Source: an uncultured Acidobacteriota bacterium
GTDB lineage: Bacteria; Acidobacteriota; Vicinamibacteria; Vicinamibacterales; 2-12-FULL-66-21
Assembly: GCA_963787175.1 (NCBI GenBank)
Contig: CAWBCA010000017.1
Location: 120,515-184,514 of the forward strand
DNA length: 64,000 nt
Direction of reading: 5' to 3'
The translations under genes and the position numbers were made by a program. Below are positions 1,966 to 61,711 of the stretch, one piece after another. A model generated the notes under the pieces. It ran no database searches, was not told the DNA's origin, and saw nothing but the letters and a program-made list of their open reading frames with translations. Numbering within the stretch: position 1 is the first letter of the stretch; each line of letters begins with the position of its first letter.

Positions 1966-1976
1966 AGGAGGTAGTT

Positions 1977-2657: not shown

Positions 2658-2686
2658 CGGACGTCGGTGGGAAGCTACAAGTCACC

Positions 2687-2881: not shown

Positions 2882-2968
2882 TAACGCCGTGGGAATCGGG
2901 TGAGCGGTCCGACGGTGAGTCAGACAGGGATACGGATCCCGGATCGCGTCAGACAGGTCCAGAAGACA

Positions 2969-3355: not shown

Positions 3356-3421
3356 ACGTCCGTTCAGCCCGCTGCAGTCGTGAAGCGGCGGCCTCCTGCC
3401 CGGCACGGCCGCACGCAGCCC

Positions 3422-6554
<3,133 letters not shown>

Positions 6555-6589
6555 GCTCCAGCAAGCCGGTATCAAAGAGGAGATGGTCT

Positions 6590-6871
6590 TTGGCAAAAGG
6601 ACTTGCCACGCGATCGATCGACCTCGAACCGATCGACCGTCTGGAAGAGAAGCTCAAGCTGCTGGTGGGCGTGATCGAGCGGCTGCGCGGCGACAGCGCG
6701 CGCATGGCGGAAGAGAACACGCGCCTGGCGCGCGAGCTCGACTCGGCGCACGTCCGGCTCAACGAAGCGGAAGGCACCAGCGCCGAAATGGCGGCGCTGC
6801 GCGAGGAACGCGACCTGATCCGCGCGCGCGTCGACGAGATGCTGCAGCAGATCGAGTCGCTCAACCTCTGA
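6590..6871 (+). CDS. ZapB-like coiled-coil cell division protein (start uncertain)
   Basis: Coiled-coil peptide LEPIDRLEEKLKLLVGVIERLRGDSARMAEENTRLARELDSAHVRLNEAEG...LQQIESLNL lies at the tail of the 4643..6871 frame. TTG at 6590 is 7-8 nt after AAAGAGGAG. Position just upstream of zapA. Confidence 0.55.
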   Translation: MAKGLATRSIDLEPIDRLEEKLKLLVGVIERLRGDSARMAEENTRLARELDSAHVRLNEAEGTSAEMAALREERDLIRARVDEMLQQIESLNL

Positions 6872-6913
6872 CCGGACACCATCGGCACCACGACCAGCTG
6901 AACGACTGGGGAC

Positions 6914-7244
6914 ATGGAACAGGAACAGGAGTCCCGCGTCATCCACGTCGAGATTCACGGGCAGCGCTACCCGATTCGCAGCGCGCTCGACGCCCAGTAC
7001 GTGGCGGAGCTCGCGGCGTTCGTCGACGAGCGGATGCGGCTGGCGGCGCGCGAGTGTCCCGGCGGGCGACACGCTGAAGATTGCGGTGCTCGCCGCGCTC
7101 AACATCGCGGACGAGTACTTCAGGGCGTCCGACGCCGACCAGGATCGCCGGTCGAGTCTGAAGGACCGCGCCATCGAGCTCGAACGGATGGTGGATCTGG
7201 CCATCGGCCTTGCCGATCCGGACGACGGCCGAGGGGCAAACTAG
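6914..7244 (+). CDS. zapA: cell division protein ZapA, one apparent frameshift
   Basis: MEQEQESRVIHVEIHGQRYPIRSALDAQYVAELAAFVDERMR. After ~7060 the ZapA-like continuation GDTLKIAVLAALNIADEYFRA...RAIELERMVDLAIG is in another frame and ends at TAG 7242-7244. Confidence 0.85.
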
Positions 7245-7247
7245 CTC

Positions 7248-7276
7248 TCGACGCCCGCCTCGGGCTGAAGTAAGAT
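7248..7276 (+). promoter_or_regulatory. candidate sigma70-type promoter for 6S RNA (TCGACG-17 nt-TAAGAT)
   Basis: Hexamers read directly, with a 17-nt spacer. The predicted start at ~7283 sits just 5' of the 6S closing stem. Motif-only support. Confidence 0.3.
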
Positions 7277-7282
7277 CGATCC

Positions 7283-7478
7283 AGGAGTTTCAACGCTCCC
7301 TGCTTTGTTCGTGATGGCTCGGGGGCTCGTTTGAGCCAACGTTTCATCCCGAAGAGAATCGCGACGCCGCGTGGTGTGCATGCCTCTGTAAGAGGAAGCC
7401 TGAAGCGCAGCTTGTGCAGCGGTTCCACCTGCTTTACGCAGGTTCATTCGACCTCCCCACACGGCAAAGCGGGGCCTA
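7283..7478 (+). ncRNA. ssrS: 6S RNA
   Basis: Central region GAGCCAACGUUUCAUCCCGAAGAGAAUCGCGACGCCGCGUGGUGUGCAUGCCUCUGUAAGAGGAAGCCUGAAGCGCAG aligns by eye with E. coli 6S GAGCCGAUAUUUCAUACCACAAGAAUGUGGCGCUCCGCGGUUGGUGAGCAUGC...GAGAAGCCUUAAAACUGCG. Closing stem CCCUGCUUUG (7298-7307) pairs with CAAAGCGGGG (7465-7474). It lies immediately downstream of zapA, as in E. coli. Ends are approximate. Confidence 0.85.
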
Positions 7479-7725
7479 TCCGGTCGGTCCGGCGTGCGAC
7501 TACGGTCGGGGTCGCCTGCACTGACGCGTCCCGCACTTCACGCCGCGACCTCGCACACGAGCACGACAGGACAGCCGCCTCGCCGCACCGCGCCGAGGCA
7601 GGAGTTACAGGCCGCTGCTGCGAGGCCCGACGCGCGGAAGGCGCCGGCACACCGATGGCGCCCGGTGCAGCGATCCCGGCGGGATTCACGCGGGGGACCT
7701 CCCGCCTACTGCGACGGGGACACGC

Positions 7726-9311
7726 ATGGCTGTACCGGCGATTTATCCTCGCCAATGTCGCGATCACCGCGGCCATTGCCGGCGGGCGCCCTCGCCTACT
7801 GGCGGATCAGCGGCACCCGGCGCATGCCGCCTCCACCCTCGACCGCGCCCGCCGCGAGGCCGAGCAGGTCACCCGGCAGGCCGAGCGCGAAGCCGACAAC
7901 CTGCGCAAGGAAGCGGCGCTCGAAGCGCGCGAGCGGGCTCACGAGCTCGCCGCCGCCGCCGAGGTCGCCGGCGCGAACCCGCCAGCAGGAGATCACCGCG
8001 CCTCGAGCAGTCCCTCGCCGACAAGACCCGCGCGCTCGCCGACCGGATGGCCGCGACGCGACCAGCTGGAGACAGGAGCTGCGCGCCAGGGAGCAGGCGG
8101 CCGCGAGCGCGAGCAGGCGGCCGCCGCCGCCGTGGCCCGCGCCGAGCAGCTGCGTGCGCGAGCGCCAGCGCGAGCTGCAGCGCGTCGCCGGGCTGAGCGC
8201 CGACGAGGCGCGCGAGCTGCTGCTCCGTCAGCTCGAAGCCGACGCCCGCCGACAGCGCCGCCAACATGGTCAAGCGGCTCGAGACCGAAGCGCGCGAGAC
8301 CGGCGGCAGCGCGCGCGCAGGAGATCATCGCCGACGCCATCCAGCGCAGCGCCGCCGAGCACGCCATCGAGACGACCGTCTCGGTCGTCGATCTGCCGAG
8401 CGACGACATGAAGGGGCGGATCATCGGCCGCGAAGGGCGGAACATCCGGGCGCTCGAGACAGCTACCGGCGTCGAGCTGATCGTCGACGACACGCCCGGG
8501 GCGATCATCCTGTCCAGCTTCGACCCGTTCCGCCGCGAGGTCGCCCGCCAGGCCATCGAGCGACTGATCGCGGACGGCCGCATCCACCCCGCCCGCATCG
8601 AGGAGGTGGTCGAGAAGGTCAAGGGGGAGATGGACGACACCGTCCGGCGCGAGGGGGAAGCGGCCGCCTTCGAGCTCGGGCTCTACGACCTCCACCCCGA
8701 GGTGCTCCGGCTCATGGGCCGCTCGAAGTTCCGCACCAGCTACGGCCAGAACGTCCTCAACCACTCGAGGGAAGTGGCGTTCCTCGCCGGGATCATGGCG
8801 AGGGAGCTTGGACTGAACAGCCCGGTCGCGGTCCGCGCCGCGTTCCTGCACGACATCGGCAAGGCGATCGACCGCGACCTGCAGGGCACGCACCTCGAGC
8901 TCGGGCTCGACGTTCCTGCGCCAGCACGGCGAAAGCGAGCCCGTGCTGCAGGCGGTGGCCGCGCATCACATGGATATCGACTGGCCGTCGCTCGAAGCGA
9001 TGATGGTGCAGGCGGCCGACGCGATCTCGGCGGCCCGGCCCGGGGCGCGCCGCGAGATCCTCGAGTCCTACGTCAAGCGGCTCGAGAAGCTCGAAGGCAT
9101 CGCCGACTCGTTCCACGGCGTCTCGAAGGCCTTCGCGCTCCAGGCCGGCCGCGAGATCCGCATCGTCGTCGAGAGCGAGAAGGTCTCGGACGAGGAGACG
9201 GTGTGGCTGTCGAACGACATCGCCCGCCGCATCGAGAACGAGCTGGAATATCCCGGCCAAATCAAGGTCACGGTGATCAGGGAGACGCGGTGCTGTCGAC
9301 TACGCCCGGTA
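7726..9311 (+). CDS. rny: ribonuclease Y, many apparent frameshifts
   Basis: N-terminal hydrophobic segment [14 protein letters not shown], then coiled coil [27 protein letters not shown] domain [29 protein letters not shown] domain [17 protein letters not shown]...[10 protein letters not shown] and AVAAHHMD. C-terminus [14 protein letters not shown] plus AVDYAR-stop (TAG 9309-9311) in a shifted frame. At least six frame changes. Confidence 0.9.
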
Positions 9312-9328
9312 GCCGGCGGGCCTCCCTG

Positions 9329-10345
9329 ACGTCACCGGCTCGGAGAGCGCGCACTCATCGACCGCATCCGCCAGCGCTTCCCTGCACCCGCCCCTCCCCT
9401 TCATCGTCGGAATTGGCGACGATGCCGCGATCGTGCGGCCGGAGCGCGACGCGCTGCAGGTGCTGACGACCGACGCGCTGGTCGAGGGCGTTCACTTCGA
9501 CCGCCGCTACTGCTCGCTGGCGGACGTCGGCTATCGCGCGCTCGCCGTCAACGTCAGCGACATCGCCGCGATGGGCGCGGCGCCGCGCCTGGCGCTGCTG
9601 TCGCTTGATGCTTCCCGGACGGATCACCGCCGGGGATGTCGACGCGCTGGCGGACGGCGTCGGCGGCGATGGCGCGCGAGGCGGGCGTCGGCATGGCCGG
9701 CGGCAACCTGACACGTACGCCCGGGCCGCTGGTCGTCGACGTCACGGTCGATCGGGGACGGTCGGTCCGCGCAAGTTCCTGACGCGCGGCGGCGGCCGGC
9801 CGGCGACTGCTGTACGTGAGCGGCGCGCTCGGTGCGGCCGCCGCGGGTCTCGACTGGCTGCGAGCGCACCGAGCCGGGGCCCACGCGATAGTCCGGACGA
9901 CGAGGACGCTGGCCGGCTGCGTGGCGCGCTATCGCCGGCCCGCGCCCCGGGCCCGGCTCGGCGGCGCTCCTGGGCCGCACGCCGCGACGGCGCGGGCCTG
10001 CATGGACCTGAGCGACGGGCTGGCCGACGCCGCCCGCCAGGTCGCCGAGGCGGGCGGCACCGGCGTCGGGCATCGACGCCGCACGGCTGCCGATCGATCC
10101 GGCGCGCAGGCCTGGTTCACGCGCGCGGGATGCGACCCGGTCGCCGCCGCGCTCGAACGCGGGCGACGATTACGAGCTGCTCTTCGCCGTCCCGCCCAAG
10201 GGAGGCGGCCGGCGGCGCGGCGCCGTCCGGCTGGCCCGCGGGCTGCCCGTCACGCGCATCGGCGAGCTCACCGCCGAACCGGACGTCGTCCTGACTGCGC
10301 GACGGCCAGGCGGAGCCGCTGCCGTCCGGCTTCTCACACTTCTGA
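9329..10345 (+). CDS. thiL: thiamine-monophosphate kinase, many apparent frameshifts, start unresolved
   Basis: [128 protein letters not shown], spread over three frames. Stop TGA at 10343-10345. No clean start codon sits in frame with LGERALI. Confidence 0.85.
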
Positions 10346-10351
10346 CGCGCC

Positions 10352-10845
10352 ATGCTTCCCGCCCGGCTCAAACGCTGGCTCGAGCAGCTGCTGCACACCC
10401 ACGACACGCCGCGGCGCACCGCGGCGGCCTACGCGCTCGGGCGTGTTCTTCGGCTTCTCGCCGATGCTGGGGCTGCACACCGTGCTCGGGCCTCGCCGCG
10501 GCCTTCGTCTTCAACCTGAATCGGCTGGCCGTGGTCCTCGGCATCTACTCGAACCTGCCGTGGGTCGTGCCCGCCTACTACACCGTCGCCACGCTGTCGG
10601 GCGCTGCCATCCTGCGCGTGGAGGTGCCGCCCGGGCTGCTCAAGGAGCTGACCGACGCGCTGCAGGGAGCGTCGTGGGGCGAGTTCCGGCAGCTTGGCCC
10701 ATGCGTTGTGGCCGCTGGCGTGGGCCTTCGTGCTCGGCTCGACCCTCGGGGCGGTGATCCTGGCGGCGTTGCCTACCGCGGGTCGCTCGCGATGATCGCG
10801 GCGCACCGCCGCCGCCAGGCGCTCGAACGGGCCGTTCCGAAGTGA
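10352..10845 (+). CDS. DUF2062-family membrane protein, apparent frameshifts, 3' end uncertain
   Basis: [30 protein letters not shown] then [52 protein letters not shown]. Confidence 0.65.
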
Positions 10846-10963
10846 ACCGCCGGTGCACGCAGGCGCGTGCGCTCCACCCGACCGTGCGTCGCTCGTCCCA
10901 TCGACCGGGTGGCATGGGACCATGTGGGCCGTGCATGGCGATCGGCTCTGCCCTGCGCGCTAT

Positions 10964-12964
10964 GCCTCGTGACGGCGTCCCGGTCGCCGGCGATGACGCG
11001 CGGCTGTTCGACTCCTGATCCTTGTACTGGAGCTGATAGAGCTTGTAGTAAATCCCGCGTTGCGCCAGCAGCTCCTGGTGGCTGCCCGACTCCCGCAGCG
11101 CGCCGCGGTGCAGCACCAGGATGTTGTCCATGTCCTGGATCGTCGACAGCCGATGTGCGATGGCTATCGTCGTCCGGCCCGACATCAGCACGCGGAGCGC
11201 GTCGCGGATGAGCAGCTCGGTTTCGGTGTCGACGCTCGACGTCGCTTCGTCGAGGATCAGGACGCGCGGGATCGAAGGCGAGCGCGCGGGCGAACGACAG
11301 CAGCTGCTTCTGTCCGACCGACAGGGTGGCGCCCGCTCCGCGACCGGGCTGGCGTAGCCGAGCGGCAGCCGCTCGATGAACGCAGCTGGCGTGGACCGCG
11401 GCGGCCGCCTCCCTGACCTGCTCGTCGCGTGATCGACGTCGCGCCCCAGCCGGATGTTCGCGGCAATGGTGCCGGAGAACAGGTGGACGTCCTGCAGCAC
11501 CAGGCTGAAGATCCGAGCGCAGGTCGTCGAGCGGCACCTCGCGGACATCCACCCCGTCGACCAGGATGCGTCCCTTGCTGACGTCGTAGAAGCGCAGCAG
11601 CAGGTTGATCAGCGTGGACTTGCCGGCGCCCGTGGCGCCCGACCACCCCGACCCGCTCCCCGGCCGCACCTCGAACGAGACGTCCCGCAGCACGTAGTCC
11701 TCTCCGGAGTAGGCGAACCAGACGTGGTCGAAGAGGATGTGGCCGGGCAGGACGGGCGCCCGCGGCGCCGGGCGTTCGGCGCTCGGCGTTCGCAGCCGAC
11801 GCAATTGTCTGGACTCGTCCGCTCGGTTTACCGACGTGTCGTGACGCCTCAGGCAGCTGGGCTGCGGCCGGCTGCAGCCGGCTGGCCGAACGCGGTCCCG
11901 ATGCCCCGCCACAGCAGGTTCCGCCATTCCGAGCGCCGAGCGCCGGGCGCCGAGCCCCGAGCTGAATGGTCGCCTCGGTGTCCAGCAGCGTGAAGATGCG
12001 CTCGGACGAGGCCATGGCTGCCTGGAGCACGTTGAACTTCTCCGACATGTCGCTGATCGGGCGGAAGAAGCGCTGCGAGTACTGCAGGAATGCGACGAGC
12101 GACCCCAGCGTCAGCGTGCCCTCCATCGTCCAGCCGCCGCCGAACCAGATGATCAGCGCCGAGGCCAGCGCGCCGATCACTTCGATGGCCGGGTAGAACA
12201 CGGCGTAGTAGAAGATCGAGTCGACGTTGGCGTCGCGGTGCGCGCGGTTGATGGTCTCGAAGCGCTCGAAGCTGCGGCGCTCGCGCCGGAACAGCTGCAC
12301 CGTGCCCATGCCGGTGATGTGCTCCTGCAGGAAGGCGTTGATGCGGGCAATCCAGGTGCGGACGGTCCGGTACGAGTCGCGCACGTGCCGGCGGAACCAC
12401 TGCGTGACGAGGACGATCAGCGGCAGCACGGCAAAGGCGACCAGCGCCAGCCGCCAGTCCATGATCACCAGCACGATCATGATGCCGACCAGCGTGAACA
12501 CGTCGCCGAAGATCGACACCACGCCGGCGGTGAACATGTCGTTCAGCACGTCCACGTCGGTGGTGACCCGGGTCATCAGGCGCCCGACCGGGTTGCGGTC
12601 GAAGAACTGGAGGTCGAGCCGCTGCAGGTGACCATAGATCTGCATGCGCAGGTCGAACATGATGCGCTGCCCGGTCATCTGCAGCACCCACGTCTGGAGG
12701 TACTCGAGCAGGAACGAGGCGGCCAGGATCACCAGGAAGACCAGCGCGATCCGGTCGAGGCCCGGCAGGTCCCCGTTCGCGATGTACCTGTCGATCGCCA
12801 GCTTCATCAGGTAGGGCTGCGCCAGCTGCAGCACCGACGCGCAGATGATCGCGCGCAGCGCAATCGCCACGTAGCGCCTTGTACGGCCGCAGGTATCGCA
12901 GCAGCCGGCGCATCAGTCGGGCGTCGTATGCCTTGCCGAGTATCTCTTCGTCGTGGATGGACAT
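10964..12964 (-). CDS. ABC exporter half-transporter (TMD-NBD, MsbA-like), apparent frameshifts, 3' end uncertain, carries a repeat insertion in the TMD-NBD linker
   Basis: N-terminus [32 protein letters not shown] is in ORF 11257..12870. NBD motifs are spread over frames: [65 protein letters not shown]. No clean stop follows [12 protein letters not shown]. Confidence 0.85.
11774..11974. repeat. ~200-nt element with inverted heptad-repeat arms inside the ABC gene linker
   Basis: Left arm CGGCGCC GGGCGTT CGGCGCT CGGCGTT (11774-11801). Right arm CCGAGCG CCGAGCG CCGGGCG CCGAGCC CCGAGCT (11940-11974) is the reverse complement of the same heptad family. The 22-mer GGCGTTCGGCGCTCGGCGTTCG is also present at ~15004-15025. 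The central ~130 nt contains the palindrome CAGCCGGCTG. Confidence 0.7.
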
Positions 12965-13154: not shown

Positions 13155-14919
13155 CCTCCGCCAGCTCCTCTTCCAGCTGCTGCTTCCGGAACAGCTCGCT
13201 GTAAATCCCCCCGGCGCGCACGAGCTCGTCGTGCCGCCCGCGCTCCGACGATGCTGCCGCGATCGAGCACGAAAATCTGGTCCGCGTCGCGCACCGTGGA
13301 GATGCGGTGCGAGACGATGATGGATGTCCGTTGATCGCATGACGCCGCGGAGCCGTCCGAGGATCTCCTCCTCCGTATAGGTGTCGACCGCCGACAGGGC
13401 ATCGTCCAGGACGAGGATCCGCGGGTCGACCATCACCGCCCGGGCGAGCGCGGTGCGCTGCTTCTGGCCGCCCGACAGCGTGATGCCACGCTCCCCGACG
13501 ACCGTGTCATACGCCTTGGGGAAGTACTCGAGGTCCTTGTCGAGCCGGGCCACGGCCGCCGCGGCCGACAGGCGCGAGGCCAGCGCTTCCGGGTCGTCCG
13601 GAACCTCCACGCCGAACGCCACGTTCTCCGCGATGCTGTCGGAAAACAGAAACGGCTCCTGCGGGACGAACGCCAATCGCGCTCCGGACGGTCGACAGCG
13701 GAATGTGGCGGACGTCCACGCCGTCGAGGAGCACCGTGCCCGGCGGCGGCTCGTGGAGCCTCGCGAGCAGGCTCAGGAGCGTCGACTTGCCGGAGCCCGT
13801 GGCCCCCACGAACGCGGCCGTCTGGCCCGCCGCGATCGCGAGTGACACGTGACGCAGGACCGGCCGCTCGGCGCCGGGATACGAGAATGTCAGGTCGCGG
13901 ATCTCCACTCGGCCCCGGATGGCCAGCGCACGTCCCTCCGCTGTCGCGCCGGCGTCGTCCACGCCCGGCACCGCATCGAGGACCTCCAGCATGCGCTTCC
14001 ACGAGGCCATGCCCCGCTGGAGGATGTTGGTGACCCAGCCGAACGCGATCATCGGCCACGACAGCATGACGAGATAGGCGTTGAAGGCGACGAAATCGCC
14101 GAGCGTGATGCGGCCCCTGATCACCTCGCGGCTGCCGAGCCACAGCACCAGCACCGATCCGAACCCCAGGAAGAGCGTCATGCTCGGATAGAACAGGCCC
14201 TGGAGGCGGATGAGCACGCGGTTGCGTCGGACGTACTCGGCGTTGGCCTCCCGGAAGCGCTCGATCTCGTGCGGTTCCTGGCCGTATGCGCGCACCACCC
14301 GGATCCCGGAGAGCGCCTCCTGCACCACCGCGCTGATGTCTGAGAGCTGCGCCTGAATCGCCTCGAACCGGGAGTGGATTGCGCTCCCGAAGTACTTCAC
14401 GCTGATCGAGACCAGGGGGAGCGGCAGCAGCGCCATGAGCGTGAGCCGGCCGTCTATCGAGCTCATGAGGATGATCGCCACGACGAAGACGAGCAGCGTG
14501 TTCGACGTGTACATGACCGCCGGACCGATCATCATCCGCACGGCGTTGAGATCGTTCGTGGCGCGCGACATCAGGTCACCCGTGCGCCGCGCCTGGTAGT
14601 AGGCGAGCGGCATCTGCTGCAGGCGGGCGAAGAAGTCGTTACGGATGTCGAGCTCGATGTCGCGCGACGCGCCGATGAGAATCCGGCGCATCAGGAACCG
14701 GAAGACGGCACCGAGCATGGCGACCGCCAGGAGGAGCCCGGCATACAGCGCGAGCTTCCCCCGCGTGACGCCGGCGGTGAGATCGTCGATCGCGTGCTTC
14801 AGGATCCAGGGCGACAGCAGCTGGATCGAAGTCGTGACGAGCACGCATGTCAGGCCGAGCAGGAACGCGCGACGATAACGGAGGACGTACGGCAGCAGAC
14901 GACGAAACGCGAAACCCAT
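13150..14919 (-). CDS. ABC exporter half-transporter (TMD-NBD), apparent frameshifts in the NBD
   Basis: Start [19 protein letters not shown] is internal to ORF 13507..15132. The TMD is intact. NBD motifs: [65 protein letters not shown]. End is [15 protein letters not shown]-stop (TCA at 13150-13152 on the plus strand). Confidence 0.9.
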
Positions 14920-14953
14920 CGGCCTTGAGTATAGCGGGTGGGGAATGGAGATC

Positions 14954-15051
14954 GAGGGGCTCGATCGGGGGAGGCTCGATGGGGATCCGGGATCCGGGGG
15001 CTCGGCGTTCGGCGCTCGGCGTTCGGGGTTCGATTCGGGCGACTCGGCAAG
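14954..15051. repeat. heptad-repeat array upstream of the second ABC gene
   Basis: GGGATCC x2 (14982-14995), then GGGGGCT CGGCGTT CGGCGCT CGGCGTT CGGGGTT CGATTCG. It is preceded by ATCGAGGGGCTCG / ATCGGGGGAGGCTCG. Shares words and word order with 12987-13063. Confidence 0.8.
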
Positions 15052-15149
15052 CGGGCTGCCGTTTGTTCGTGTTATCCTTGCGTGCCTTTCCCAGCAGGCT
15101 CCGCTGCCCTCTCCGGGCATGACTACAACCAATCGGGGCGAGAGACGTC

Positions 15150-22199: not shown

Positions 22200-22557
22200 G
22201 GGGGCGACCTAGATTCGACGGAGATATGGTTTCGCAGGATGCGTTGCCGAGGACCATCACCCTCGTAAATCAGATGGAAAAAAACATAACTGCGGACACG
22301 CAGCTCGCTCTCGCAGCCTAAACCCCTGTGAGCGTCCACCCCGGTCAGCCTGCGGGCCGGGATGTGGATGTCATTCCAGCAGGCTGGTTGTCGACGGCCG
22401 TCCCGGACGTTGACGACGAGACTTCTTCGGGGCTGGTTCCTGGCGGTTCTTCGCTGCTTCCTCACGTCAGGGGCGAGACTTTAGAAGCGGATACGCATCG
22501 TAGATTCCTGCGAGGATGTATGTTCGGACCCGGGTGCAAATCCCGGCGCCTCCACCA
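22200..22557 (+). ncRNA. ssrA: tmRNA
   Basis: 5' GGGGGCGACCUAGAUUCGACGG. The 3' end is GGACCCGGGUGCAAAUCCCGGCGCCUCCACCA. The acceptor stem GGGGGCG/CGCCUCC has a G3-U pair. Tag reading frame GCG GAC ACG CAG CTC GCT CTC GCA GCC TAA (22292-22321) encodes ADTQLALAA. Confidence 0.95.
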
Positions 22558-47885: not shown

Positions 47886-48800
47886 CTACTGCTGCGCGGC
47901 GCAATACGCGTCTCTGGATGCCGTGCTGCTCAGCGGTGGCGCGTACAAGGCCGACGCTTTGAGCGTCAGGGCAATTGCTGCCGCGGATTGCTCGATCTCC
48001 TCCGCCACGAGCTGCCGGAAAAAAGGGGTCGGAGCCGTTACCAGGCGTACCGCGTTGTACCAGGCGCGCTCGCGCCAGCTGACGACGAGCAGAAGGAACG
48101 CGTCTGCGTCCAGTGTGGTGCCAGGCACGTCGGAATTCCTGATGGACGGGTCGAAACGCTGAGCCGCCTCGTCGAGTGCGGGACCGTGTGCTACCCGGTA
48201 CAGGATCTGGTTCACCTTGTCGTGATCAGGCTTGCGACTGGAGCCGTCCGGGTGCCTGAGTCCCAGTCGCTCGAGGACGAAGGGCAAGTCGCGGTTGATG
48301 TGGGCACTCATCCCGAGGAGCGTGTTTCCGCTTCCGGCGACTTCCCGGCGCTCGGCCGCCTCGAACGCAATGGCCCACGCCGGCGGGACTGGCCCGGAGC
48401 TGGCGTGCCACGCATCATAGGCGGTGAAGTAGTCGTCTGCGAACAACGCGTCCTCGCGGTTGACGTAGGGCGTGTCGGCGAAGAATGTCGGATCCGTGGC
48501 GACTGTGCGTCGGTACTCCTCAGTGGTTCGGAGGTACAGCAGCGCAAATACCGCGTCGTGATCGCAGCTCTGGGCCAGGTCGCGGAGCCGGTTGGTCATG
48601 TCGGTTACCACACCGTCCACGCATTGGAGGGTGCCCTTTACGCAGGGGGTGCGGGACGACCACAGCGGATCGGCAGCGCTCTGGGCCGTGTACACCGTGG
48701 AGTCCGCCCTGATGACGACCGGCGCCATGCAGATTGATGCCACGAGAACGGACGCGATTGGCGCCATCCGCCACGACCGGTGTGTCGCACATGTCATCAT
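47886..48800 (-). CDS. DUF5995-like hypothetical protein
   Basis: Intact ORF. LLGMSAHINRDLPFVL motif. The start overlaps the stop of the upstream GGDEF-EAL gene by 4 nt. Confidence 0.55.
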   Translation of the reverse strand: MMTCATHRSWRMAPIASVLVASICMAPVVIRADSTVYTAQSAADPLWSSRTPCVKGTLQCVDGVVTDMTNRLRDLAQSCDHDAVFALLYLRTTEEYRRTVATDPTFFADTPYVNREDALFADDYFTAYDAWHASSGPVPPAWAIAFEAAERREVAGSGNTLLGMSAHINRDLPFVLERLGLRHPDGSSRKPDHDKVNQILYRVAHGPALDEAAQRFDPSIRNSDVPGTTLDADAFLLLVVSWRERAWYNAVRLVTAPTPFFRQLVAEEIEQSAAAIALTLKASALYAPPLSSTASRDAYCAAQQ

Positions 48801-51008
48801 GTTGTCCTCCTCCCCGAGCCGCCTGGATCAGGCGCTCCATCGTGGTTCCGGCTCTCCCGCCGGCCGTGCCATGCGAGAAAGCCGGCACTGGACATCGGCT
48901 TCGCGAAATGAAAGCCCTGCGCCTGGTCGCACTCGAGATTTGTCAGCAACTCGCTGATCAGCTGACTTTCAACCCCTTCCGCCACGATGTCCAGGCTGAA
49001 GTTGTGCCCGAGCTCGATCGCCGCACGCACGATGGTGGCATCCCGTCCGTCGGTCGCCATGTCGCGGACGAACGACCGGTCGATCTTGATCGCCTGGACC
49101 TGCAGATTCTTGAGATACGCGAGGGAGGAGTAGCCTGTGCCGAAATCGTCGAGTGAGAACGCGATGCCAAGGCCATGCAGGAGGCCGATCGTCGTCATCG
49201 CACCCTCCGGGTCCTGCATGACGGCGCTCTCGGTGATTTCGAGCTCGAGCTGGCGCTCGTGAGTGCCGGACGCACGCAACGCCTGATCGATTACGTGGGG
49301 CAACTCGGCGTCGTGCAGCAGCGGCGCCGAGAGATTGACCGCCACCGGGATCTTCAGCCCCTGCGCCTGCCACGAACGGGAATCCTCGAGGGCGTGGCGG
49401 ATGACCCACGATGTGAGGGGCTTCACCAGGCCGGTGCTCTCGGCGACCGGGATGAACTTGCTTGGCGGAATGAGGCCGCGACTCGGGTGTTGCCAGCGCA
49501 CGAGACACTCGGCTCCCAGCGTGTCGCCGGTTCGCAGGCTGACCCGTGGCTGATAGTGCAGCACCAACTCGTCGGAGTGGATGGCGCGCTGCAATTCGGC
49601 GATGAACGTCAGAGACTCCAGCTGCTCCTGATCCATTGCTGGGTCGTACACGGCGATGCGGCCACCGAACCGTTTCGCGCGATACATCGCGATATCGGCT
49701 CTCCGCAGCAGGCTGGCCGGATCCGATCCGTGGTTGGGATGAACGGCAATCCCGACGCTGGCATTCAGCTTCAGCGGTACATGGTCGACCCGCAGCTCGT
49801 CCGCGAGCGTGGCCAGTGCCTTCCTGGTGATCTGCTCAGCCTCATCCACGTCCTTGAGGCCTGGCATGAGCAGCGCAAACTCGTCGCCGCCCAGCCGGGC
49901 GAGCGTGTCGCTCTCGCGGATCGAGGACCCAATCTGCGCCGCGACGTGACGCAGGACGCGGTCCCCTACCTCGTGCCCCAAGGTGTCGTTGACGTCCTTG
50001 AAACGGTCGAGGTCGAACAGCACAACGCCGACGAGATAGCCGTAACGGCGGGCGCCGGCCAGTGCCTGCTCGAACCTGTCCCACAACAGCGCGCGATTCG
50101 GCAGGCCGGTGAGTGGATCTTCCAGTGCCTGCCGCCGGATCCTGTCCTCGGTGTGTGCGCGGGTGATGGCGATGCTGGCGAGTCTGATACACCGTTCGAT
50201 GATCTTCGGCACGCGCGTGCCGAGCGGGAAAGACTCGTCCCTGGACAGCACGAACCAGCCCAGGTCGCTGTCGGTCAGGTTCGATCGAATCGGATGCTCG
50301 AGTTGCGTGAGATTCCGCGAACCGGCGTGCCGCTGCGGCGCGGACAACTGGTCCAGCGTCGGCGACAGGGTGTGCTCGACGGTGCCGTCGGGATTCGCGT
50401 GCACCAGCATCCAGGATGCGCGGAAGTCCTGCCCGGCCGCGAGATGGTCCGCTCCACCACGGCCGACCCTCCCGGTGCTGCTCGAGTCCGGCCGGAGTGG
50501 CAGACGCCACGACTCGCGCCGGGGCGCCGCTGTGGCGGGCCAGCAACCCGGCGATCGAGCCGAGGATGTGCGGCAGGGGTGCAGCCTGTGCGATGAGCTC
50601 GAGGATTGCCGTTTGCTCGGCGAGCAGTTCCTGGGCTTCGCGACGCGCGGTGACGTCGAACATCGTGCCGGCGTTTCCGACCATCTGACCGGACTCGGCG
50701 TAGCGAACACTCGCGCGGAGTTCGAGCCAACAGAACCCTCCATCAGCCATCCGATAGCGGCCTTCGTGATGGCAATAGGTCGCGCGGCCCGATACGACGG
50801 CGGTGAAGAGGTCGATGGTTCGCTGTCGTTCGTCTGGATGCACGTACTCCATGAAATTCCTGCCGAGGCTGTCCTTCACGGGAAAGCCGGTCACCCGTGT
50901 CCATGCCTGGTTGAGGTAGGTCCAGTTACCCTCGGGATCCGTCTGGAAGACAATCTCGTTCAGGCTGTCCAGCAGGTCGGCGGGATGGAGCGGCAGGTTG
51001 GTCTGCAT
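48797..51008 (-). CDS. PAS - GAF-like - GGDEF - EAL signalling protein, one apparent frameshift
   Basis: PAS segment NEIVFQTDPEGNWTYLNQAWTRVTGF. GGDEF segment DPLTGLPNRALL...RLGGDEFALLMPG. EAL segment LHYQPRV, EITESAVM, DDFGTGYSSLAYL, KIDRSFV, AEGVES. Frame change near 50480. Confidence 0.88.
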
Positions 51009-54013: not shown

Positions 54014-54629
54014 TCAAGCCCCGTCTTCGAGGACTCTCTGCACTGCCCTGACGAATACCCCGAACCGCCGGGTCGGGTGCCGCCGCCCGGTCCTGGTCAG
54101 CGACTCGAACATCGTCTGGCGGACGGCGCGTGACAGTTCGAGTTGGACCCCAGCCTTCGTCGTGCCTCGATTGCACAGGTTGGTTGGCTCGAGCCCCTGC
54201 AGTTTCCTGCTGGGGTGCTTTCGCACGTCGAAACCGTGTCGAGCCAGTTCGCCCCGGATCGCGGTGCCGACGATCGCTGTCGAGGCCACCTATGAACACG
54301 CCTTCGCCGTCTTCCGTGGAGTGTTCCCCGTGAAGAGTTACGACGACGTCGGTCTGACCGATCAGCGTAAGACACATCGGCTCGTCGAAGCGAGTGCTGG
54401 TGATATGCAAGCCGCCGTTGCCTGATGATTTCAGCCCTTCGAGCGTGTAGAAGGAGAACGCTCCCGCCCCGATCGCATCGGCAATCTCGGAGGTTCCCGG
54501 TACTATGCCGCCGCCATGAGGCGCGATCAGCGCGAAGTCGCGTCTTGCCCGCCGCACTGATATTGCATAGTCGACGCCGGCCTGCTCGTTGCGCGCGAGG
54601 GCGGCGAAGTTCGGATACTTGTCGGCCAT
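54014..54629 (-). CDS. DUF867 / poly-gamma-glutamate hydrolase-like protein, one apparent frameshift
   Basis: MADKYPNFAALARNEQAGVDYAISVR...ALIAPHGGGIVPGTSEIA...VVVTLHGEH. The C-terminal part is in ORF 54014..54289. Confidence 0.65.
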
Positions 54630-54636
54630 ACTGCGA

Positions 54637-56872
54637 TCAGCACGTCCACCGTGCGAGAATGCGGTCGAGATCGGAACGATTCAGCGGCTTGGTCATGTAG
54701 TCGCTCATGCCGGCGTCCAGGCACCGCTCGCGGTCGCCGGCCATCGCGTGGGCCGTCATCGCCACGATGTAGCAGGGCGGCAGATGGTGCTCGACTTCGA
54801 GCTGTCGAATCGCCCTCGTCGCCTCGAAGCCGTCCATGCCCGGCATCTGCACGTCCATGAAGATCAGTTCCAGCGCGCGGCTGAGGGCGGCGGCTGCGTA
54901 GGCGTCCACGGCCAGCTTGCCGTTGCCGACGGCAACAGGCCGCAGGCCGTGCTTGTGAAGCAGCCGCACCATGATCGTCGCATTCACGATGTTGTCTTCG
55001 GCGATCAACACCGGAGGTCCGGCGGCAGGTCCAGCGTGGGCCGAACAACCACGCTCGGCCCACGGAGCCGGGGCTGGTCGACGGGCCGGTGCCTCACCGG
55101 GATCGTGAACGAGAACGTCGTGCCGCGGCCCACCACTGACGTCACCTGCAGCGTGCCGCCCATCAGCTCGACGAGCGCGCGCGAGACGGTCAGGCCGAGG
55201 CCGGTTCCGCCGAAAGCGCGTGGTGGACGTATCGGCCTGCGAGAACGGCTGGAAGATGGCGTCCAGCTTGCCCGCGGCGATGCCGATGCCGGAGTCGGTC
55301 ACGACGCAGTAGAGCGCTGTCCGCGCGCCGGCCTCGCCGGCGTTCTCGGAAGGTCACCGTGATCCGCCCGCGCTGCGGCGTGAACTTCACGGCGTTGCCA
55401 ATGATGTTGAGCAGGACCTGGCCCCAGCCTGGTCTCGTCCGCAACAATCCGGCCGGACAGCCGCTCGTCCAATCATGCAGACATAGATCAGGTCTTTCTC
55501 GGCGATCTTCGGTGGAGGAGCTTGCCGAGGCGCCGGGTGAAGTCGCAGGAACTCGAAGGCACGCGGGTCGAGCACGACCCGGCCCGCCTCGATCTTCGAG
55601 AAATCCAGGATGTCGTTGATGACGACGAGCAGGCTCCGGCCGGACTGGATGATCGTTTCCAGGTCTTCGCGCTGCTCCGTCGTCAGGGCGGTCTCGCTCA
55701 TCAGGTCTGCCGTGGCGATGATGCCGTTCATCGGCGTCCGGATCTCATGGCTCATGTTGGCCAGGAACTCGCCCTTGATCCGGGCGGCGGCCTCCACTTC
55801 GAGAGCCCGCTGCTCCGCCAGTTCTTCAGCCCTCTTGCGCTGGCTGATGTCCGTCCGAATCGCGATGAACTGCGACGGCGTGCCGTCGTCCCCGAGAAAC
55901 GGCACGATCGTCGTGGCCACCCAGTAGATGCTCCCGTCCTTGGCGCGGTTGCGCAGCTCGCCCGACCAGATCGCTCCACCTCCGATCGTCGTCCAGAGGT
56001 CCCTCATGAAGGCCTTCGAGTGGTAGCCCGAGTTGAGGATGCGGTGATCCTGCCCGAGGAGCTCCTCCCGGGAGTATTTTGAAATGGCGCAGAACTTGTC
56101 GTTGGTGTAAGTGATCCTGCCCCGCGGATCGGTAACCGCGACGATGCTGTGCGAATCGAGTGCGAGCTGCCTGTCGGCGAGGTCCTTGAGTGCGCCGCGC
56201 AGCGCCGCCTCAGTGGCACGGCGTGCCTGAATCTCATCGCGCAGGGACGTGTTGGCCCTGATCAGATCCGTGGAGCGCTCCTCGACCAGCCGCTCGAGCT
56301 CGTCCTTCGACCGGAGCAGCACCGCCTCGGCCTGCTTCGCGTCGGTGATGTCGTACCCCAGCCCCTGCAGGAACACCGGATGCCCGGCATCGTCGCGGAC
56401 CAGCGTGATCTCGCCGCGAATCCAGACCACGTTCCCGGCCTTCGCGAGGAAGCGGTACTCGCCCTTGAAGTAGTCCCCGGTCGATACCGTGCGCGCGAAC
56501 TCATGGTTCCAGCGACGCTGATCCTCGGGATGGAGGCGCTGGTACCAGAGGATGGGATCCTCCACCCACTCCTTCGCGGTGTAGCCCAGCACGCGCTCGA
56601 TATGCGGGTTGACGTAGATCTCACTGCGGTCGCTCCCGAGCGAGGCAAGAAACGTGATCACCGGCAGTTTCTCGACCAGCGTCTGGTAGCGGAGCTCCGC
56701 CGCCCGCATGCGGTCCTGCACCGTGGCGGCTCGTCGCGGGGCGCCGGATCGACGGGATCCGGCGGCGCCGGTGGCGGGCAAGCCGGGCAGCGTAGGCCTG
56801 CGCCAGGAGGAGGAGCGAATCGAACGCCGGCAGCTGTGCGGGCAGGAGCTCGTCAGCCGCGTCGGCGCTCAT
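54637..56872 (-). CDS. hybrid sensor histidine kinase (PAS-PAS-HisKA-HATPase-REC), many apparent frameshifts
   Basis: PAS modules [13 protein letters not shown]... and [25 protein letters not shown]-box [17 protein letters not shown]-box [14 protein letters not shown]-box DSGIGI. Receiver [11 protein letters not shown]...[14 protein letters not shown]...TAHAMAGD...MSDYMTKP. A candidate ATG at 56872 overlaps the hhyL stop (ATGA). Confidence 0.85.
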
Positions 56873-58721
56873 GGCAGGTTCCGCGCCGCTTCCTCGAGCT
56901 CGGCCTCACGGGGCCTCCGGCTGCGGCTGGGCCCCGAACGATCGGCGAGTGGCGGATCGTCGATCACCTTGCCGTCGCCCAGGTACATGTGGACGCCGCA
57001 CGGCAGGCAGGGATCGAAGCTGCGCACCGTGCGCATGATGTCGATGCCCTTGAACGTGTCGGGGCCGTTCTCCTCGAAGATGGGCGTGTTCTGACCGCGT
57101 CCTCGTAGGGCCCGGGCACGCCGAACGAGTCCCGCGGGCTGGCGTTCCAGGGCGTCGGCGGATAGGGATGGTAGTTGGCGATCTTGCCGCCGCGAATCAC
57201 GACGTGATGCGACAGCACGCCGCGCACCGCCTCGTGGAAGCCGCAGCCGATGGCCTCGTCCGGCACCTTGAACTGGTGCCATGTCGTCAGGCGGCCGGCG
57301 TGCACCTCGGCCATCGCCTGCTCGAGGAAGTACAGCGCCGCGGCCGCCGCATAGGCCTGGAAGTAGGTGCGGGCGCGGTCGCGCTCGAGCGTGTTGCTCC
57401 AGTCGCGGGATCTTCCACTCGAACTCCGTCTCGCCGTGGTTGGCGGTCTTCGGCAGGCGGATCTTGACGCTCGTGCCCGGTCGCCTTGACGTAGCCGCCG
57501 AGGTTCACCGATCCCGGCCAGCGCCGTCACCCAGAACCGGGCGAGCGGGCCGCCGCCGGTGTCGAGCGCGAGATGCTGGCCGCTGCGCGTGTCGAACCAG
57601 CGCGGCGACATGACCCAGGTGTATTTGTCCGCGAAGTCGCGCTTCTGCGGCTTCGGCAGCGTCGTCTGGTTCCACGGATGCCGCTGATCGACCGGGTTGC
57701 CGAGCGGGTCGGCCTTGACGAACATCTCGCTGCGCCTGCCAGTCGTCGTAGAACGAGCTGCCGAGCAGGATGCGGATGCCCAGGTTGATCTCGATCAGGT
57801 CGGTGGTGATCAGTTCGCCGTCCACCACGATGCCGGGCGTGACGTACATCGCGCGGCCCCACTCGGGCATCGACTCGTAGCTGAAATCGCAGACATCGGG
57901 GTTCTTGAACGAGCCCCAGCAGCCGAGCAGCACCCGCCGCCGGCCGACTTCCTCGTAGCCGGGCAGCGCCTCGTAGAAGAAGTCGAACAGATCGTCGTGC
58001 AGCGGCACGCATCGCTTCATGAAGTCGATGTACTTCAGCAGCCGCACGAGGTAGTCGTTGAAGAGCTGCACGCTCGGCGACGGTGCCGACGCCGCCCGGG
58101 TAGAGCGTCGAGGGGTGCACGTGCCGGCCTTCCATCAGGCAGAACATCTCGCGCGCCAGCCGGCTCATCTGCAGCGCTTCGAGATAGAAGGTGCCCGGTG
58201 AACGGGTTCAGCGCCCGCATGATGTCGGCGATGGTGCGGTAGCCGTGCAGCTGCCGCGTGCGGCGCCTCGGTCGTTTCGGCCTTCGCCAGCACGCCCGGG
58301 TTCGTCTCCCGCACCATCTGCTCGCAGAAGTCGACGCCGACCAGGTTGTCCTGGAACAGGTTGTGGTCGAACATGTACTCGGCGGCCTCGCCGAGGTTGA
58401 TGATCCACTCGGCCAGGGGCGGCGGCTTGACGCCGAAGGCCATGTTCTGCGCGTAGACGGCGCAGGTCGCGTGGTTGTCGCCGCAGATGCCGCAGATCCG
58501 GCTGGTGATGAAGTGCGCGTCGCGCGGGTCCTTGCCCTGCATGAACACGCTGTAGCCGCGGAAGATCGACGACGTGCTGTGGCACTCGACCACGCGCCGG
58601 TTCGCGAAGTCGATCTTGGTGTGAATGCCGAGGCTGCCGACGATCCGGGTGATCGGATCCCACGACATCTCGACGAGTTGCGGGCTCGGGGCGCCATCGC
58701 GTCCGACGCTGCGCGGGTCAT
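56869..58721 (-). CDS. hhyL: [NiFe]-hydrogenase large subunit, group 1h (group 5, high-affinity type), many apparent frameshifts
   Basis: LVEMSWDPITRIVGSLGIHTKIDF. STSSIFRGYSVFMQGKDPRDAHFITSRICGICGDNHATCAVYAQN (L1 motif). RSFDPCLPCGVHMY (L2 motif). The pieces are spread over ORFs 58165..59106, 58208..58663, 57505..58071, 56964..57725 and 56869..57282. Confidence 0.88.
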
Positions 58722-58733: not shown

Positions 58734-59724
58734 TTACCTCGCTCCGGCGCGCGCAGGCTCCTTGTTCATCGAAGCCTGGGTGAAGGACCGCAGCGACCGG
58801 ATCGTGCTGCCATAGATCTGGATCGCGTGCGTCGAAGGTTCGCCCCCGGCGGCTCGTCCAGGAACGGCATGAACTTGTCGGGGAAGCCGGGCATCGTGCA
58901 GCCGATGCAGACGCCGCCGACATTCGGGCAGCCGCCGATGCCGCCCATCCAGCCGCGCTTCCCGACGTTGCACTGCACGACCGGCCCCCAGCAGCCCAGC
59001 TTGCACGATGCACTCGCTGCTGCCCGTAGCGCGGTCGCGAAGTCGGCCTGCTCGTAGTGGCCGCCGCGGTCGCAGCCTTCGTGCACAGTGTGCGGCGAAG
59101 AGCCACGTCGGCCGCCCAGCTCGTCCAGAGGGATCATCGGCGCGGTGCCGGCCGCCTGACGCAGGAGGTAGAGCAGCACTTCCATGAAGTTGTCGGGCTG
59201 CACCGGGCAGCCGGGCACGTTGACGATCGGCACCCGCTGCCAGCGACTTCCAGTCCAGCCCCAGGTAGTCCGCCAGCCCCATGCAGCCGGTCGGATTGCC
59301 CGCCATGGCGTGGATGCCGCCGTAGGCTGCGCAGGTCCCGGCGGCCACCACGGCCCACGCCTTCGGGGCCAGGCGGTCGATCCAGTCGCAGGTCGTGATC
59401 GGCTGCCCGGTGGCCGGGTCGATGCCGAACGCCGCCCAGAACCCCTCGCTTTGTTCTCTCGTTGGGGATCGATCCCTCCACGACCAGGATGAACGGATCG
59501 AGGCGGCCCGCCGCGGCGTCATGGCAGTAGCGCATGAACGCCTCGCCGTTCTCGTTCGCGAGCACCGGGTTGTGAAAGTGGACCGTCGGGATGCCCGGGA
59601 TGATGCCCCGAACGAGGTCCTCGATGCTGGGTTGCGTGGCGGCGGTGATGGCGATCGTGTCGCCGTCGCAGCCGAGCCCGGCCGTGATCCAGAGGATGTG
59701 GACTTCCGCGAAGGGGGTCTCCAT
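58734..59724 (-). CDS. hhyS: [NiFe]-hydrogenase small subunit, group 1h type, no TAT signal, apparent frameshifts
   Basis: [38 protein letters not shown], with no RRxF signal. [91 protein letters not shown]. Confidence 0.85.
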
Positions 59725-60200: not shown

Positions 60201-61711
60201 ATGGACGCCTTCATCAGTTACGCCTCAGCGAACGCCAGCCGCGCCGCGCGCGTCGAGCGCGCGCTTGTCGCGGCCGGGCGCACTGTCTGGCGCGATCGCT
60301 CGAAGATCCGCCTGGGTGTCCTCCTGCGGCGGCAGCTCCAGGAAGCCATTTCCGGCTCCCGCGCGCTCGTGCTCCTGTGGTCCAGGCAGGCGGCGCAATC
60401 CCGATGGGTCGCCGCCGAGATCCTCACGGCCTTTCATGTCAGGAGGTTCATCGTCCCGTGCGCGCTCGATGACACGCCGCTGCCACAGTTCCTGTCGGCG
60501 ACCGTTCATCTGAATCTTTCCCGTGCCACGAGTGGCGCGCTGGATGCCTTGCAGCGAGCGCTGGTCGACGCGCCAGCCGGTGCGAACGCCATCCCGCCCG
60601 CCGAGAGCAGCCGCAGCGCGGAGCAGCGTCGCGCCATCGATGCCATCAATCGCCTTCAGCACGCGGAGCTCGACCACCTGCAGCGCCGTGCCCTCCAGGC
60701 TGCGCGGCGCGCCCACGCCAGGACCGACCGCGAGATGCGGCGCGCCCGGAGGAAGTGGCGGCTGGATCCCATCGTCCTGAACCTTGCCGGGTACCATTGC
60801 AAGAACGCATACATGCTGAAGCACTGGGAGGCGTTGCAGGCCGGGCGCGGACCCGTGGATCAGACTGCTCGGAAGGGCCGAACGCCTGTTCTTCGAGACC
60901 CTCTTCGTGGATCCGACGGACCCGTACGGGCTGGATGGCCTGGGCAGCGTGCTGAGACTCGAGCGCGAGTTCGACGCGGCGGAGTTCTTCTTTCTCGAGG
61001 CGATCGAGCAGGCCGACAGGAGGGGTATCGTCTACCTGGAGCCGCGGCAGAATCTCGAAAGCGTCCGGCGCGCTCGAGGCGAGGCGCCACGGGAGGGCCC
61101 ACCGGCAGCCAGCCGCGCAACGCCGCCCCGCGACGCCGCCCCCCGTCAGCCGGGCCTCCCGCTCGACACGATAGCGGACGACCTCCGAACCGGCGAAAGG
61201 GCCCTCCGGTCGGGCAAGTGGCAAGGCGCGCTCGCCGTGTTCGATCGCGTGCTCCAGACTGCGCCCTCTTCAGGCGATGGCGCACGGGTTTCGAGCCGAG
61301 GCGTTGCTTCGGCTGGGCCGGTTCGACGACGCCCTCGAGGCGTACGACGACACTCTGGCGATCCAGCCGGGAAACGTCGCGGCGCGATCTGCCCGGGGCG
61401 CCATCCTGGTGGGTCTCGGTCGGACCGACGAAGGACTTCAGGACATCGACAGCGTGGTTGCCGCGCACCCCAGGCATCCTGAAGCTCTCTACAACAAGGC
61501 CTGCGCGCATAGCATCAAGCAGGAGGGGGGCGCAGCGCTGGTCGCCCTGGGAGAAGCCATCGCAGCCCATCCGCCACATCGCGCGACCGCGGCCTCGGAT
61601 CCGCATCTCGGATACGTGCGGGACCATCCGGCGCACGGACGGGCATTTCGCGCCCTGATGAAGCGCGGAAAGGCCTCCGCCGGCAAACCCGGGCCAGTCG
61701 CACGTCCCTGA
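60201..61711 (+). CDS. TIR domain - TPR repeat protein, apparent frameshifts
   Basis: MDAFISYASANASRAARVERALVAAGRTVWRD...ALVLLWSRQAAQSRWVAAEILTA (TIR, conserved Glu present). TPR-like C-terminal part is in ORFs 60907..61482 and 61277..61711 (AEALLRLGRFDDALEAYDDTLAIQPGNVAA...EALYNKACAH). Confidence 0.78.

Follow-up and report, generated by a model that had tools for sequence, protein, structure and literature searches.

Within the global H2 cycle, the principal sink is the oxidation of atmospheric H2 by group 1h [NiFe]-hydrogenases, a process that also aids the survival of the dominant soil phyla. A known arrangement of a hydrogenase with its own sensor kinase is found on pHG1, where hoxB, hoxC and hoxJ follow each other in this order with a gap of 156 nucleotides (nt) before hoxJ. 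In the classification HydDB, linkage to a histidine kinase gene marks sensory hydrogenases, which comprise only [NiFe] group 2b and [FeFe] group C1, and no kinase-linked 1h subgroup is listed (PMC5037454). In a published comparison of acidobacterial 1h clusters only hhyS, hhyL, hhyE, hupD, hypothetical genes and hyp genes are named (PMC5900883), and according to a paper from 2026 the signals and sensors governing atmospheric H2 oxidation are not yet understood (PMC13098282). A full-text literature search for 1h or high-affinity hydrogenases together with kinase or two-component terms returned no description of such a linkage, most subscription journals being outside its coverage. Here, we analyse a 64-kilobase (kb) stretch of contig CAWBCA010000017.1 from an uncultured Acidobacteriota bacterium (the whole stretch is called the window), in which the genes of a group 1h hydrogenase are followed by that of a PAS histidine kinase. 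We show that a conserved genomic module links a family of PAS kinases to group 1h hydrogenases, mostly via a dedicated small-subunit paralogue.

On the minus strand of the window, between 54.0 and 59.7 kb, four co-oriented genes encode the small subunit (hhyS), the large subunit (hhyL), a hybrid PAS kinase and a DUF867 protein. Their coordinates bear out the same-strand string hhyS-hhyL-kinase(REC)-DUF867 that had been proposed from the letters and open reading frames only (hereafter the sequence-only reading). The 7-nt spacer given there between the kinase stop (TGA 54639-54637) and the DUF867 start (ATG 54629-54627) is equally correct; position 54014, which bounds the stretch described there, is the end of the DUF867 gene, and the kinase ends at 54637. 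The group 1h signatures were confirmed as well. The large subunit of the window (HhyL'; the primes denote the subclades described below) shows, after stitching of its reading frames, the metal-binding motifs RICGICGDNH (L1) and DPCLPCGVH (L2). It is 89% identical to the HhyL of the orthologous locus L081, which reaches 1089 bits against HofG (5AA5_C) and 77% identity to HofG of pHG1. The orthologous small subunit scores 533 bits against HofK (5AA5_A), and in the stitched HhyS' of the window all 10 conserved cysteine motifs can be read, with no twin-arginine motif indicative of a twin-arginine translocation (Tat) signal at its N-terminus. Judged by these features the window hydrogenase clearly falls into group 1h.

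The adjacency of hydrogenase and kinase recurs in independent contigs. L081, located on an independent 114-kb contig, has the order hhyS-hhyL-kinase with a 20-nt gap and quite different flanking genes. A metagenome scan with the kinase N-terminus and first PAS domain as query returned 28 contigs, about 18 of which encode kinase relatives including this N-terminus (44-60% identity), and at least 14 contigs have hhyL or hhyS immediately ahead of the kinase in the same orientation. Among 80 loci from species genomes (L001-L080), mostly Acidobacteriota and collected via related HhyL, the genes are rearranged: 44 have hhyS'-kinase upstream of hhyS-hhyL and two a kinase in this place with no detected hhyS', in two the kinase lies downstream of the cluster and in one on the other strand, and the remaining 31 have no kinase. 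The acidobacterial order is hhyS'-kinase-regulator-hhyS-hhyL, as seen in L036 (4922-11737), which comprises hhyS', a kinase of the composition PAS_3-PAS_9-HisKA_3-HATPase_c, a NarL-type regulator, hhyS, hhyL and accessory genes, and in L120, a contig of 5.36 Mb. Within 20 kb of the acidobacterial hhyS' no second large subunit was found in the 44 loci or in L120. Many Acidobacteriota carry a second, orphan hhyS' together with a PAS kinase and a NarL-type regulator upstream of their canonical hhyS-hhyL.

Six proteins of the kinase family were looked up in independent assemblies and five of them stand beside or near hhyS' or hhyL. The order in L113 is hypFCDE-hhyS'-hhyL'-kinase. Orphan hhyS'-kinase pairs occur in unrelated contexts in L114 (6945-9895) and L118 (4927-7309) with no hhyL within 6-8 kb, which suggests that the small subunit hhyS' plus the kinase form the minimal conserved unit. 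In L119 there is a kinase-regulator pair and, 3 kb off, an hhyS'-kinase pair; its two family kinases (6001-8297 and 10118-12220) are paralogues, the one with the NarL-type regulator having no hhyS' upstream and the other standing directly behind hhyS'. L112 encodes a homologue of the first PAS domain that has no N-terminal motif and no hydrogenase linkage. In the cultured planctomycete Paludisphaera mucosa (L115, JARRAG010000002.1, 1820433-1843423) a homologue of 996 residues (P0097) closes a hyp-hhy operon of the order hypFCDE-hhyS-hhyL-nifU-DUF5947-DUF6084-x-hycI-hypA-hypB. Next to it, in the opposite orientation, are REC-GGDEF and REC-Hpt genes, which hint at a cyclic di-GMP output, and the annotated kinase start apparently lies too far downstream, the motif EAEAILRAL being found upstream of it.

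Two further loci are independent deletion variants in which the first 37-67 hhyS' codons are joined to the kinase, so that the hydrogenase is lost and the kinase retained behind the start of hhyS'. In L082 (7906-10040), with an 84% identical kinase, hhyS codons 1-67 run directly into kinase residue ~94, and L095 (426-1187; the same protein as P0122) shows a similar deletion. Both loci are apparently remnants of an hhyS-hhyL-kinase locus and could be either natural hydrogenase-loss alleles or assembly joins.

Among the carriers are Acidobacteriota, Planctomycetota, Myxococcota and the lineage of the window. Since the order recurs with different flanks, with diverged kinases (44-60% identity) and in many lineages, a coincidental adjacency of kinase and 1h hydrogenase is excluded. 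The sequence-only reading had left the choice between an undescribed coupling and a coincidence, which an adjacency unique to this contig would have favoured; with the kinase found by hhyL in L081, in the metagenome contigs, in rearranged form in the species genomes and in Paludisphaera, the choice falls on a conserved hydrogenase-kinase linkage.

The same reading had the kinase ATG overlap the hhyL stop in an ATGA. The letters ccATGAgc are present (ATG 56872-56870, TGA 56871-56869), and ATG 56872 is the true kinase start because the open reading frame of 83 residues beginning there matches the way in which P0001, an intact orthologue (742 residues, 80% identity), begins. The overlap itself is an artefact of insertion and deletion (indel) errors, since the raw hhyL' frame reaches this TGA only owing to two surplus C's, one at 56959 and one at 56940. 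Once these are removed, HhyL' ends with HSPMFGAQPQPEAP (fuller C-terminus CGVHMYLGDGKVIEIRHSPMFGAQPQPEAP) at the stop TGA 56908-56906, 33 nt before the ATG, and this end matches those of the relatives, namely HSPMFGAPVE (L081), HSPMFGAQEK (L087) and HSPMFGAQVR (L091, L093). The translational coupling of kinase and hhyL that had been proposed is therefore unsupported in the window. Genuine ATGA overlaps of hhyL and kinase exist in L087, L091 and L093, and elsewhere the spacing is 14 nt (L088), 20 nt (L081), 44 nt (L094), 76 nt (L092) and 115-145 nt (L084/L085). Since these gaps range between 14 and about 145 nt, the family as a whole does not conserve translational coupling. In L084-L099 the hhyL' stop lies nearly always inside (A/G/T)TGA and overlaps a potential start of the next gene, i.e. 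the kinase in L087, L091 and L093 and an HP443-like gene in L086, L089 and L099; some loci, L094 among them, have the ATGA, yet the kinase starts only later (after 44 nt in L094).

With its 33 nt the corrected spacer leaves no room for a terminator, and a weak GGAA is found in it at -10 to -7; a GAGGAG ribosome-binding site is located 6 nt ahead of the hhyS' ATG at 59724. A terminator scan gave no terminator-like site on the minus strand of the whole cluster, and a kinase start lying well downstream behind a terminator, the other objection raised beforehand, does not apply with ATG 56872 in place. No sigma-70-like promoter was found by the cluster scan, the promoter and terminator counts being equal to the shuffled expectation. 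Co-transcription of hhyL' and the kinase is likely, and we regard hhyS'-hhyL'-kinase together with the lineage-specific DUF867 gene as forming one operon. DUF867 was also considered as a part of the conserved module and rejected, as it had no match in any of the related loci screened (L001-L111). Within the operon it is a passenger peculiar to this lineage.

Neighbour-joining trees (100 bootstraps) divide the small subunits from 120 loci in two clades with 82.5% (S') and 84.7% identity within and 72.6% between them, the split having a bootstrap of 73/100. Clade S', which is linked to a kinase in all cases, contains the sequences of the window, L081, L085, L086, L088, L093 and L101 as well as every extra copy of Acidobacteriota, and the other clade contains every copy that directly precedes a canonical hhyL. 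Members of S' have a short N-terminus lacking VPYGRKTQ and a tail lacking KWRH..LTTGY, both of which are common to canonical HhyS and the crystallised HofK. Among the tails listed LTTGY occurs in none of S' (48 clade members) and is present in the canonical ones. Large subunits of the type found in the window have a clade of their own (L') with a bootstrap of 100/100, and the nearest L' sequences are metagenome proteins. P0249 (933 residues, on a JGI contig of 3.9 kb) is a large subunit fused at CGVHMYV to an HP443-like 1h accessory protein, whereby the C-terminal extension is skipped; this fusion may be real or a frameshift artefact.

The kinase of the window consists of an N-terminal helix motif, a flexible linker, PAS_3, PAS_9, HisKA, HATPase_c and REC, and P0001 possesses the same architecture in full and intact. 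The phospho-accepting histidine of HisKA, HATPase_c and a C-terminal REC with its aspartate and lysine can be read, which makes it a hybrid histidine kinase. We define the hydrogenase-linked PAS kinase family by the helix motif ..L..LA..F, a flexible linker and PAS_3 in a protein encoded directly downstream of hhyS' or hhyL; motif, PAS_3 and genomic position are all found in the window kinase. The conserved input comprises the motif, a short amphipathic helix, a variable linker of 25-40 residues and one PAS_3 domain. In an alignment of 36 family members L18, L21 and A22 (numbered as in P0001) vary hardly or not at all, and the motif is also present in the kinases of the acidobacterial type. 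In the AlphaFold2 model the motif forms a free-standing helix (residues 13-25, low confidence), the linker behind it (26-48) is disordered, and the PAS core has a predicted local distance difference test (pLDDT) above 90. In contrast to this input the outputs vary. PAS_9-HisKA-HATPase-REC is found in the window and P0001, HisKA-HATPase in L089, L091 and L093, HisKA-HATPase-REC in L087, HisKA-HATPase-REC-REC-Hpt in L088 and Paludisphaera, and HisKA_3-HATPase with a separate NarL-type regulator in Acidobacteriota. That the input is conserved while the outputs interchange indicates that the input module carries the family-specific function. Partners encoded with the kinase in relatives are the NarL-type regulator of L036, the fused Hpt of L088 and the REC-Hpt protein of Paludisphaera. 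No curated kinase model of NCBIfam reached its cutoff. P0054, P0058, P0063, P0066, P0076 and P0120 were rejected as family members, because they match only the second PAS domain and the kinase core and are devoid of the first PAS domain (PAS1) and the motif.

How should this module be understood? By analogy with HoxBC-HoxJ and HupUV-HupT we consider it on balance probable that it represents a hydrogenase-coupled sensor kinase, which would have arisen independently out of 1h components. We prefer a link of a physical or sensory kind to mere co-regulation because a second small subunit is retained, because orphan S'-kinase pairs exist and because S' has lost its terminal extensions. The kinase would dock on the hydrogenase via its N-terminal helix and PAS1, the likeliest partner being S' or an S'L heterodimer, and would read H2 oxidation, for example as the redox state of the iron-sulfur clusters in S'. 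This readout could modulate autophosphorylation and the downstream phosphorelay, which in the window would proceed through the kinase's own receiver domain to a further partner and in Acidobacteriota to the adjacent NarL-type regulator directly upstream of the catalytic hhyS-hhyL, driving hhySL. More tentatively, and with somewhat less confidence than an even chance would imply, we suggest from the sequences that S' (with L' or the catalytic HhyL) and the PAS kinase constitute a second, independently evolved class of H2-sensing regulatory hydrogenases derived from group 1h. In this class S' would be a dedicated sensor subunit, its lost extensions would be replaced by the tethered helix of the kinase, and the detection of trace H2 would switch on scavenging or other responses.

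Several observations weigh against a hydrogenase-coupled sensor. L' differs from canonical HhyL at only 12 positions, all of them conservative, and keeps a cleavable C-terminal extension (about 21 residues after CGVH in the corrected window sequence, about 22 in relatives; in the crystal structure the HofG chain stops at CGVH). S'L' has the maturation genes hupD and hypFCDE beside it in L086, L089, L099 and L113, and in the first three of these loci a 1h accessory gene and hupD, and only these, stand between hhyL' and the kinase. In the planctomycete and myxobacterial cases the kinase follows the canonical cluster, and as the small subunit beside it is a canonical one in Paludisphaera and L029/L050, the kinase does not require S' as its partner. 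PAS1 shows no conserved histidine or cysteine in the family alignments, from which no cofactor can be inferred, and a Foldseek comparison of its model with the PDB gave only generic PAS/LOV folds (19-24% identity). In the window itself the gene models rest on frameshift correction. No response regulator or Hpt gene adjoins the kinase, its neighbours being the DUF867 and a TPR gene, with the rest of the window not exhaustively screened. With the accessory proteins of L036 as tblastn queries none of the NifU-like, DUF5947, DUF6084, HP443-like, endopeptidase and hyp/hup proteins was detected in the 64 kb, and their genes could lie elsewhere on the 1.18-Mb source contig. Part of this would also be expected if the kinase were an ordinary local regulator that senses an unrelated cytoplasmic cue (redox, energy status or O2) via PAS and whose place beside the hhy genes reflects no more than its control of their expression or its expression along with them, with S'L' being a catalytic isoenzyme. 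S'L' may simply be such an isoenzyme, for S' retains all cluster ligands, L' is nearly identical to catalytic HhyL and maturation genes are at hand; moreover, regulators commonly stand beside their targets, the acidobacterial kinase-NarL pair is located directly upstream of hhyS-hhyL and the Paludisphaera kinase comes after a canonical cluster. We nevertheless regard a local regulator of this kind as unlikely, if still worth serious consideration, as it leaves unexplained the second distinct small subunit that directly precedes the kinase in 44 genomes, although hhyS-hhyL is present there anyway, the orphan hhyS'-kinase pairs with no nearby hhyL, the loss of both terminal extensions of S' and the conservation of the tethered helix while the output domains change.

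The orphan pairs could also be taken at face value, S' and kinase then acting as an iron-sulfur sensor of redox state or O2 that needs neither a large subunit nor H2, and the link to hhyL in the window being secondary. The minimal unit hhyS'-kinase, the pairs L114 and L118 and the Acidobacteriota lacking hhyL' agree with this. Set against it, S' is about 73% identical to catalytic HhyS over its full length, so the surface for pairing with a large subunit is probably retained, hhyL lies within a few kb in most carriers, and in the window type hhyL' lies between S' and kinase; we judge this explanation improbable. There is finally the view that the juxtaposition is accidental or the locus a decaying, functionless pseudogene cluster, to which the state of the reading frames at first lends itself. 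None of the four genes, contrary to what the sequence-only reading implied, is an intact open reading frame in the given sequence. Compared with the 84% identical L081 locus, 5.2 kb of coding sequence contain about 28 indels of a single base, most of which are 1-nt insertions located outside homopolymer runs. For the single genes the numbers are about 8 indels in hhyS', about 10 single-base ones in hhyL', at least 11 in the kinase and one frameshift in DUF867. The kinase is spread over at least four frames; ATG 56872 opens only the 83-residue frame, the PAS region is in another one, and a frameshift near 56730-56750 connects the two. However, essential genes of the window suffer from the same defect: the B3_4 domain of pheT is cut at profile position 63 between two overlapping open reading frames, the TGS domain of thrS is in a frame different from the remainder of the gene, and for rny and an ABC transporter gene the Pfam matches cover only a part of the domain. 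In-frame stop codons are absent, and the ratio of nonsynonymous to synonymous substitutions (dN/dS) against L081 is 0.16-0.28 for hhyS', hhyL' and the kinase, which are under purifying selection. Because thrS, pheT and rny are frameshifted too, in-frame stops are missing and dN/dS is low, we conclude that the indels are assembly errors and reject a decay of the locus. The whole window stems from an error-prone assembly, probably of long reads, and its 440-residue open reading frame P0015 is on record in NCBI/ENA on a contig of 1.18 Mb, in keeping with a long-read metagenome-assembled genome; a hidden Markov model of reading frames based on GC content at third codon positions showed frame switches elsewhere in the window as well and was too crude for counting them. 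With the adjacency moreover kept across many lineages, accident or decay is extremely improbable.

Table 1. Positions of the hydrogenase-kinase locus and its parts in the window
Feature	Coordinates	Strand	Basis
hhyS', small subunit of a group 1h-like [NiFe]-hydrogenase, kinase-linked S' subclade	58734..59724	-	Frame stitching, clade placement, tail comparison
hhyL', large subunit	about 56906..58721	-	Pfam NiFeSe_Hases matches on fragments, stitching
Corrected hhyL'-kinase spacer, 33 nt, GGCCGAGCTCGAGGAAGCGGCGCGGAACCTGCC	56873..56905	-	C-terminus correction
Soluble hybrid histidine kinase	54637..56872	-	Pfam on fragments, three-frame reading, orthologue P0001
N-terminal helix motif, family signature ..L..LA..F	56792..56833	-	Family alignment, AlphaFold2
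PAS1 (PAS_3), conserved sensor domain of the kinase family	56275..56700	-	Pfam PAS_3 E=6.7e-36, alignments
PAS2 (PAS_9), widespread S-box PAS present in only some family members	55839..56142	-	Pfam
HisKA with H-box	55582..55776	-	Pfam HisKA E=3e-22
HATPase_c, split over three reading frames by indels	55100..55450	-	Pfam, frame reading
REC with conserved Asp in FMDVQMP and conserved Lys in TKPL	54661..55011	-	Pfam Response_reg E=4.7e-22
DUF867/Gamma_PGA_hydro gene, one frameshift	54014..54629	-	Pfam

The positions of the single features are given in Table 1. A TPR gene follows the cluster and a TIR-domain gene precedes it, both in the opposite orientation; the TIR-domain gene is frameshifted (60201-61658, plus strand) and divergent from hhyS'. 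An apparently intact GGDEF-EAL gene is found at 48797-50743 on the minus strand, about 4 kb beyond the cluster. A search for repeats and Rfam families across the hydrogenase-kinase locus yielded nothing relevant. In other parts of the window a tmRNA (154 bits) is encoded at 22200-22557 and a 6S RNA (77 bits) at 7294-7479, both on the plus strand, the 6S RNA being located just upstream of rny and overlapping its called start. Genes split by frameshifts occur at 20-6871 (thrS, pheS, pheT), 7331-9466 (rny) and 13507-15132.

If the module is a hydrogenase-coupled sensor kinase, abundant soil bacteria could detect trace H2 and switch on the scavenging of atmospheric H2 or other responses, and a second evolutionary origin of hydrogenase-based H2 sensing would be suggested. 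Kinase and paralogous small subunit occur in over half of the 80 species genomes that were sampled for a related hhyL, most of them Acidobacteriota, and are concrete candidates for sensor and regulator genes. According to the kinase-linkage criterion of HydDB the module would add a subgroup to the hydrogenase classification. With Paludisphaera mucosa a carrier is available in culture, in which tests of co-transcription and knockouts are feasible.

Compared with described systems, the hydrogenase of the window resembles the group 1h enzymes Hhy of Mycobacterium smegmatis and Streptomyces and the actinobacterial-type hydrogenase (AH) HofK/HofG of Cupriavidus necator (PDB 5AA5) in its L1 and L2 cysteine motifs, in the absence of a Tat signal and in the cleavable C-terminal extension after CGVH. 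It differs from canonical group 1h since its subunits fall into their own subclades S' and L', S' having no terminal extensions, and since genes for NifU, DUF5947, DUF6084, the protease and Hyp proteins are missing from the 64-kb window; the AH cluster of C. necator, in turn, contains no kinase. With HoxB-HoxC-HoxJ of C. necator and HupU-HupV-HupT of Rhodobacter the locus shares the order of small subunit, large subunit and soluble PAS kinase on one strand. The window kinase is cytoplasmic like HoxJ, and as in HoxBC-HoxJ the acidobacterial system adjoins catalytic hydrogenase genes that are possibly under its control. The comparison with HoxBC and HoxJ made in the sequence-only reading thus stands as an analogy and fails as a homology. 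In BLASTP searches with HoxJ against P0001 and the L093 kinase only HATPase_c aligns (28% identity) and the sensor region does not, so the kinase was rejected as a HoxJ homologue; HoxB and S' share 32% identity, and the hydrogenase is not of group 2b, its best solved relatives being 1h enzymes. In contrast with HoxC, which has no C-terminal extension, the large subunit of the window retains one, and the output is a hybrid kinase or a NarL-type regulator instead of the NtrC-type regulator HoxA. For the putative [NiFe] group 2c (linked to diguanylate cyclases) and the putative [FeFe] group C1 (linked to histidine kinases) of HydDB a sensory role was likewise deduced from linkage to signalling genes (PMC5037454), whereas the hydrogenase lineage concerned here is group 1h.

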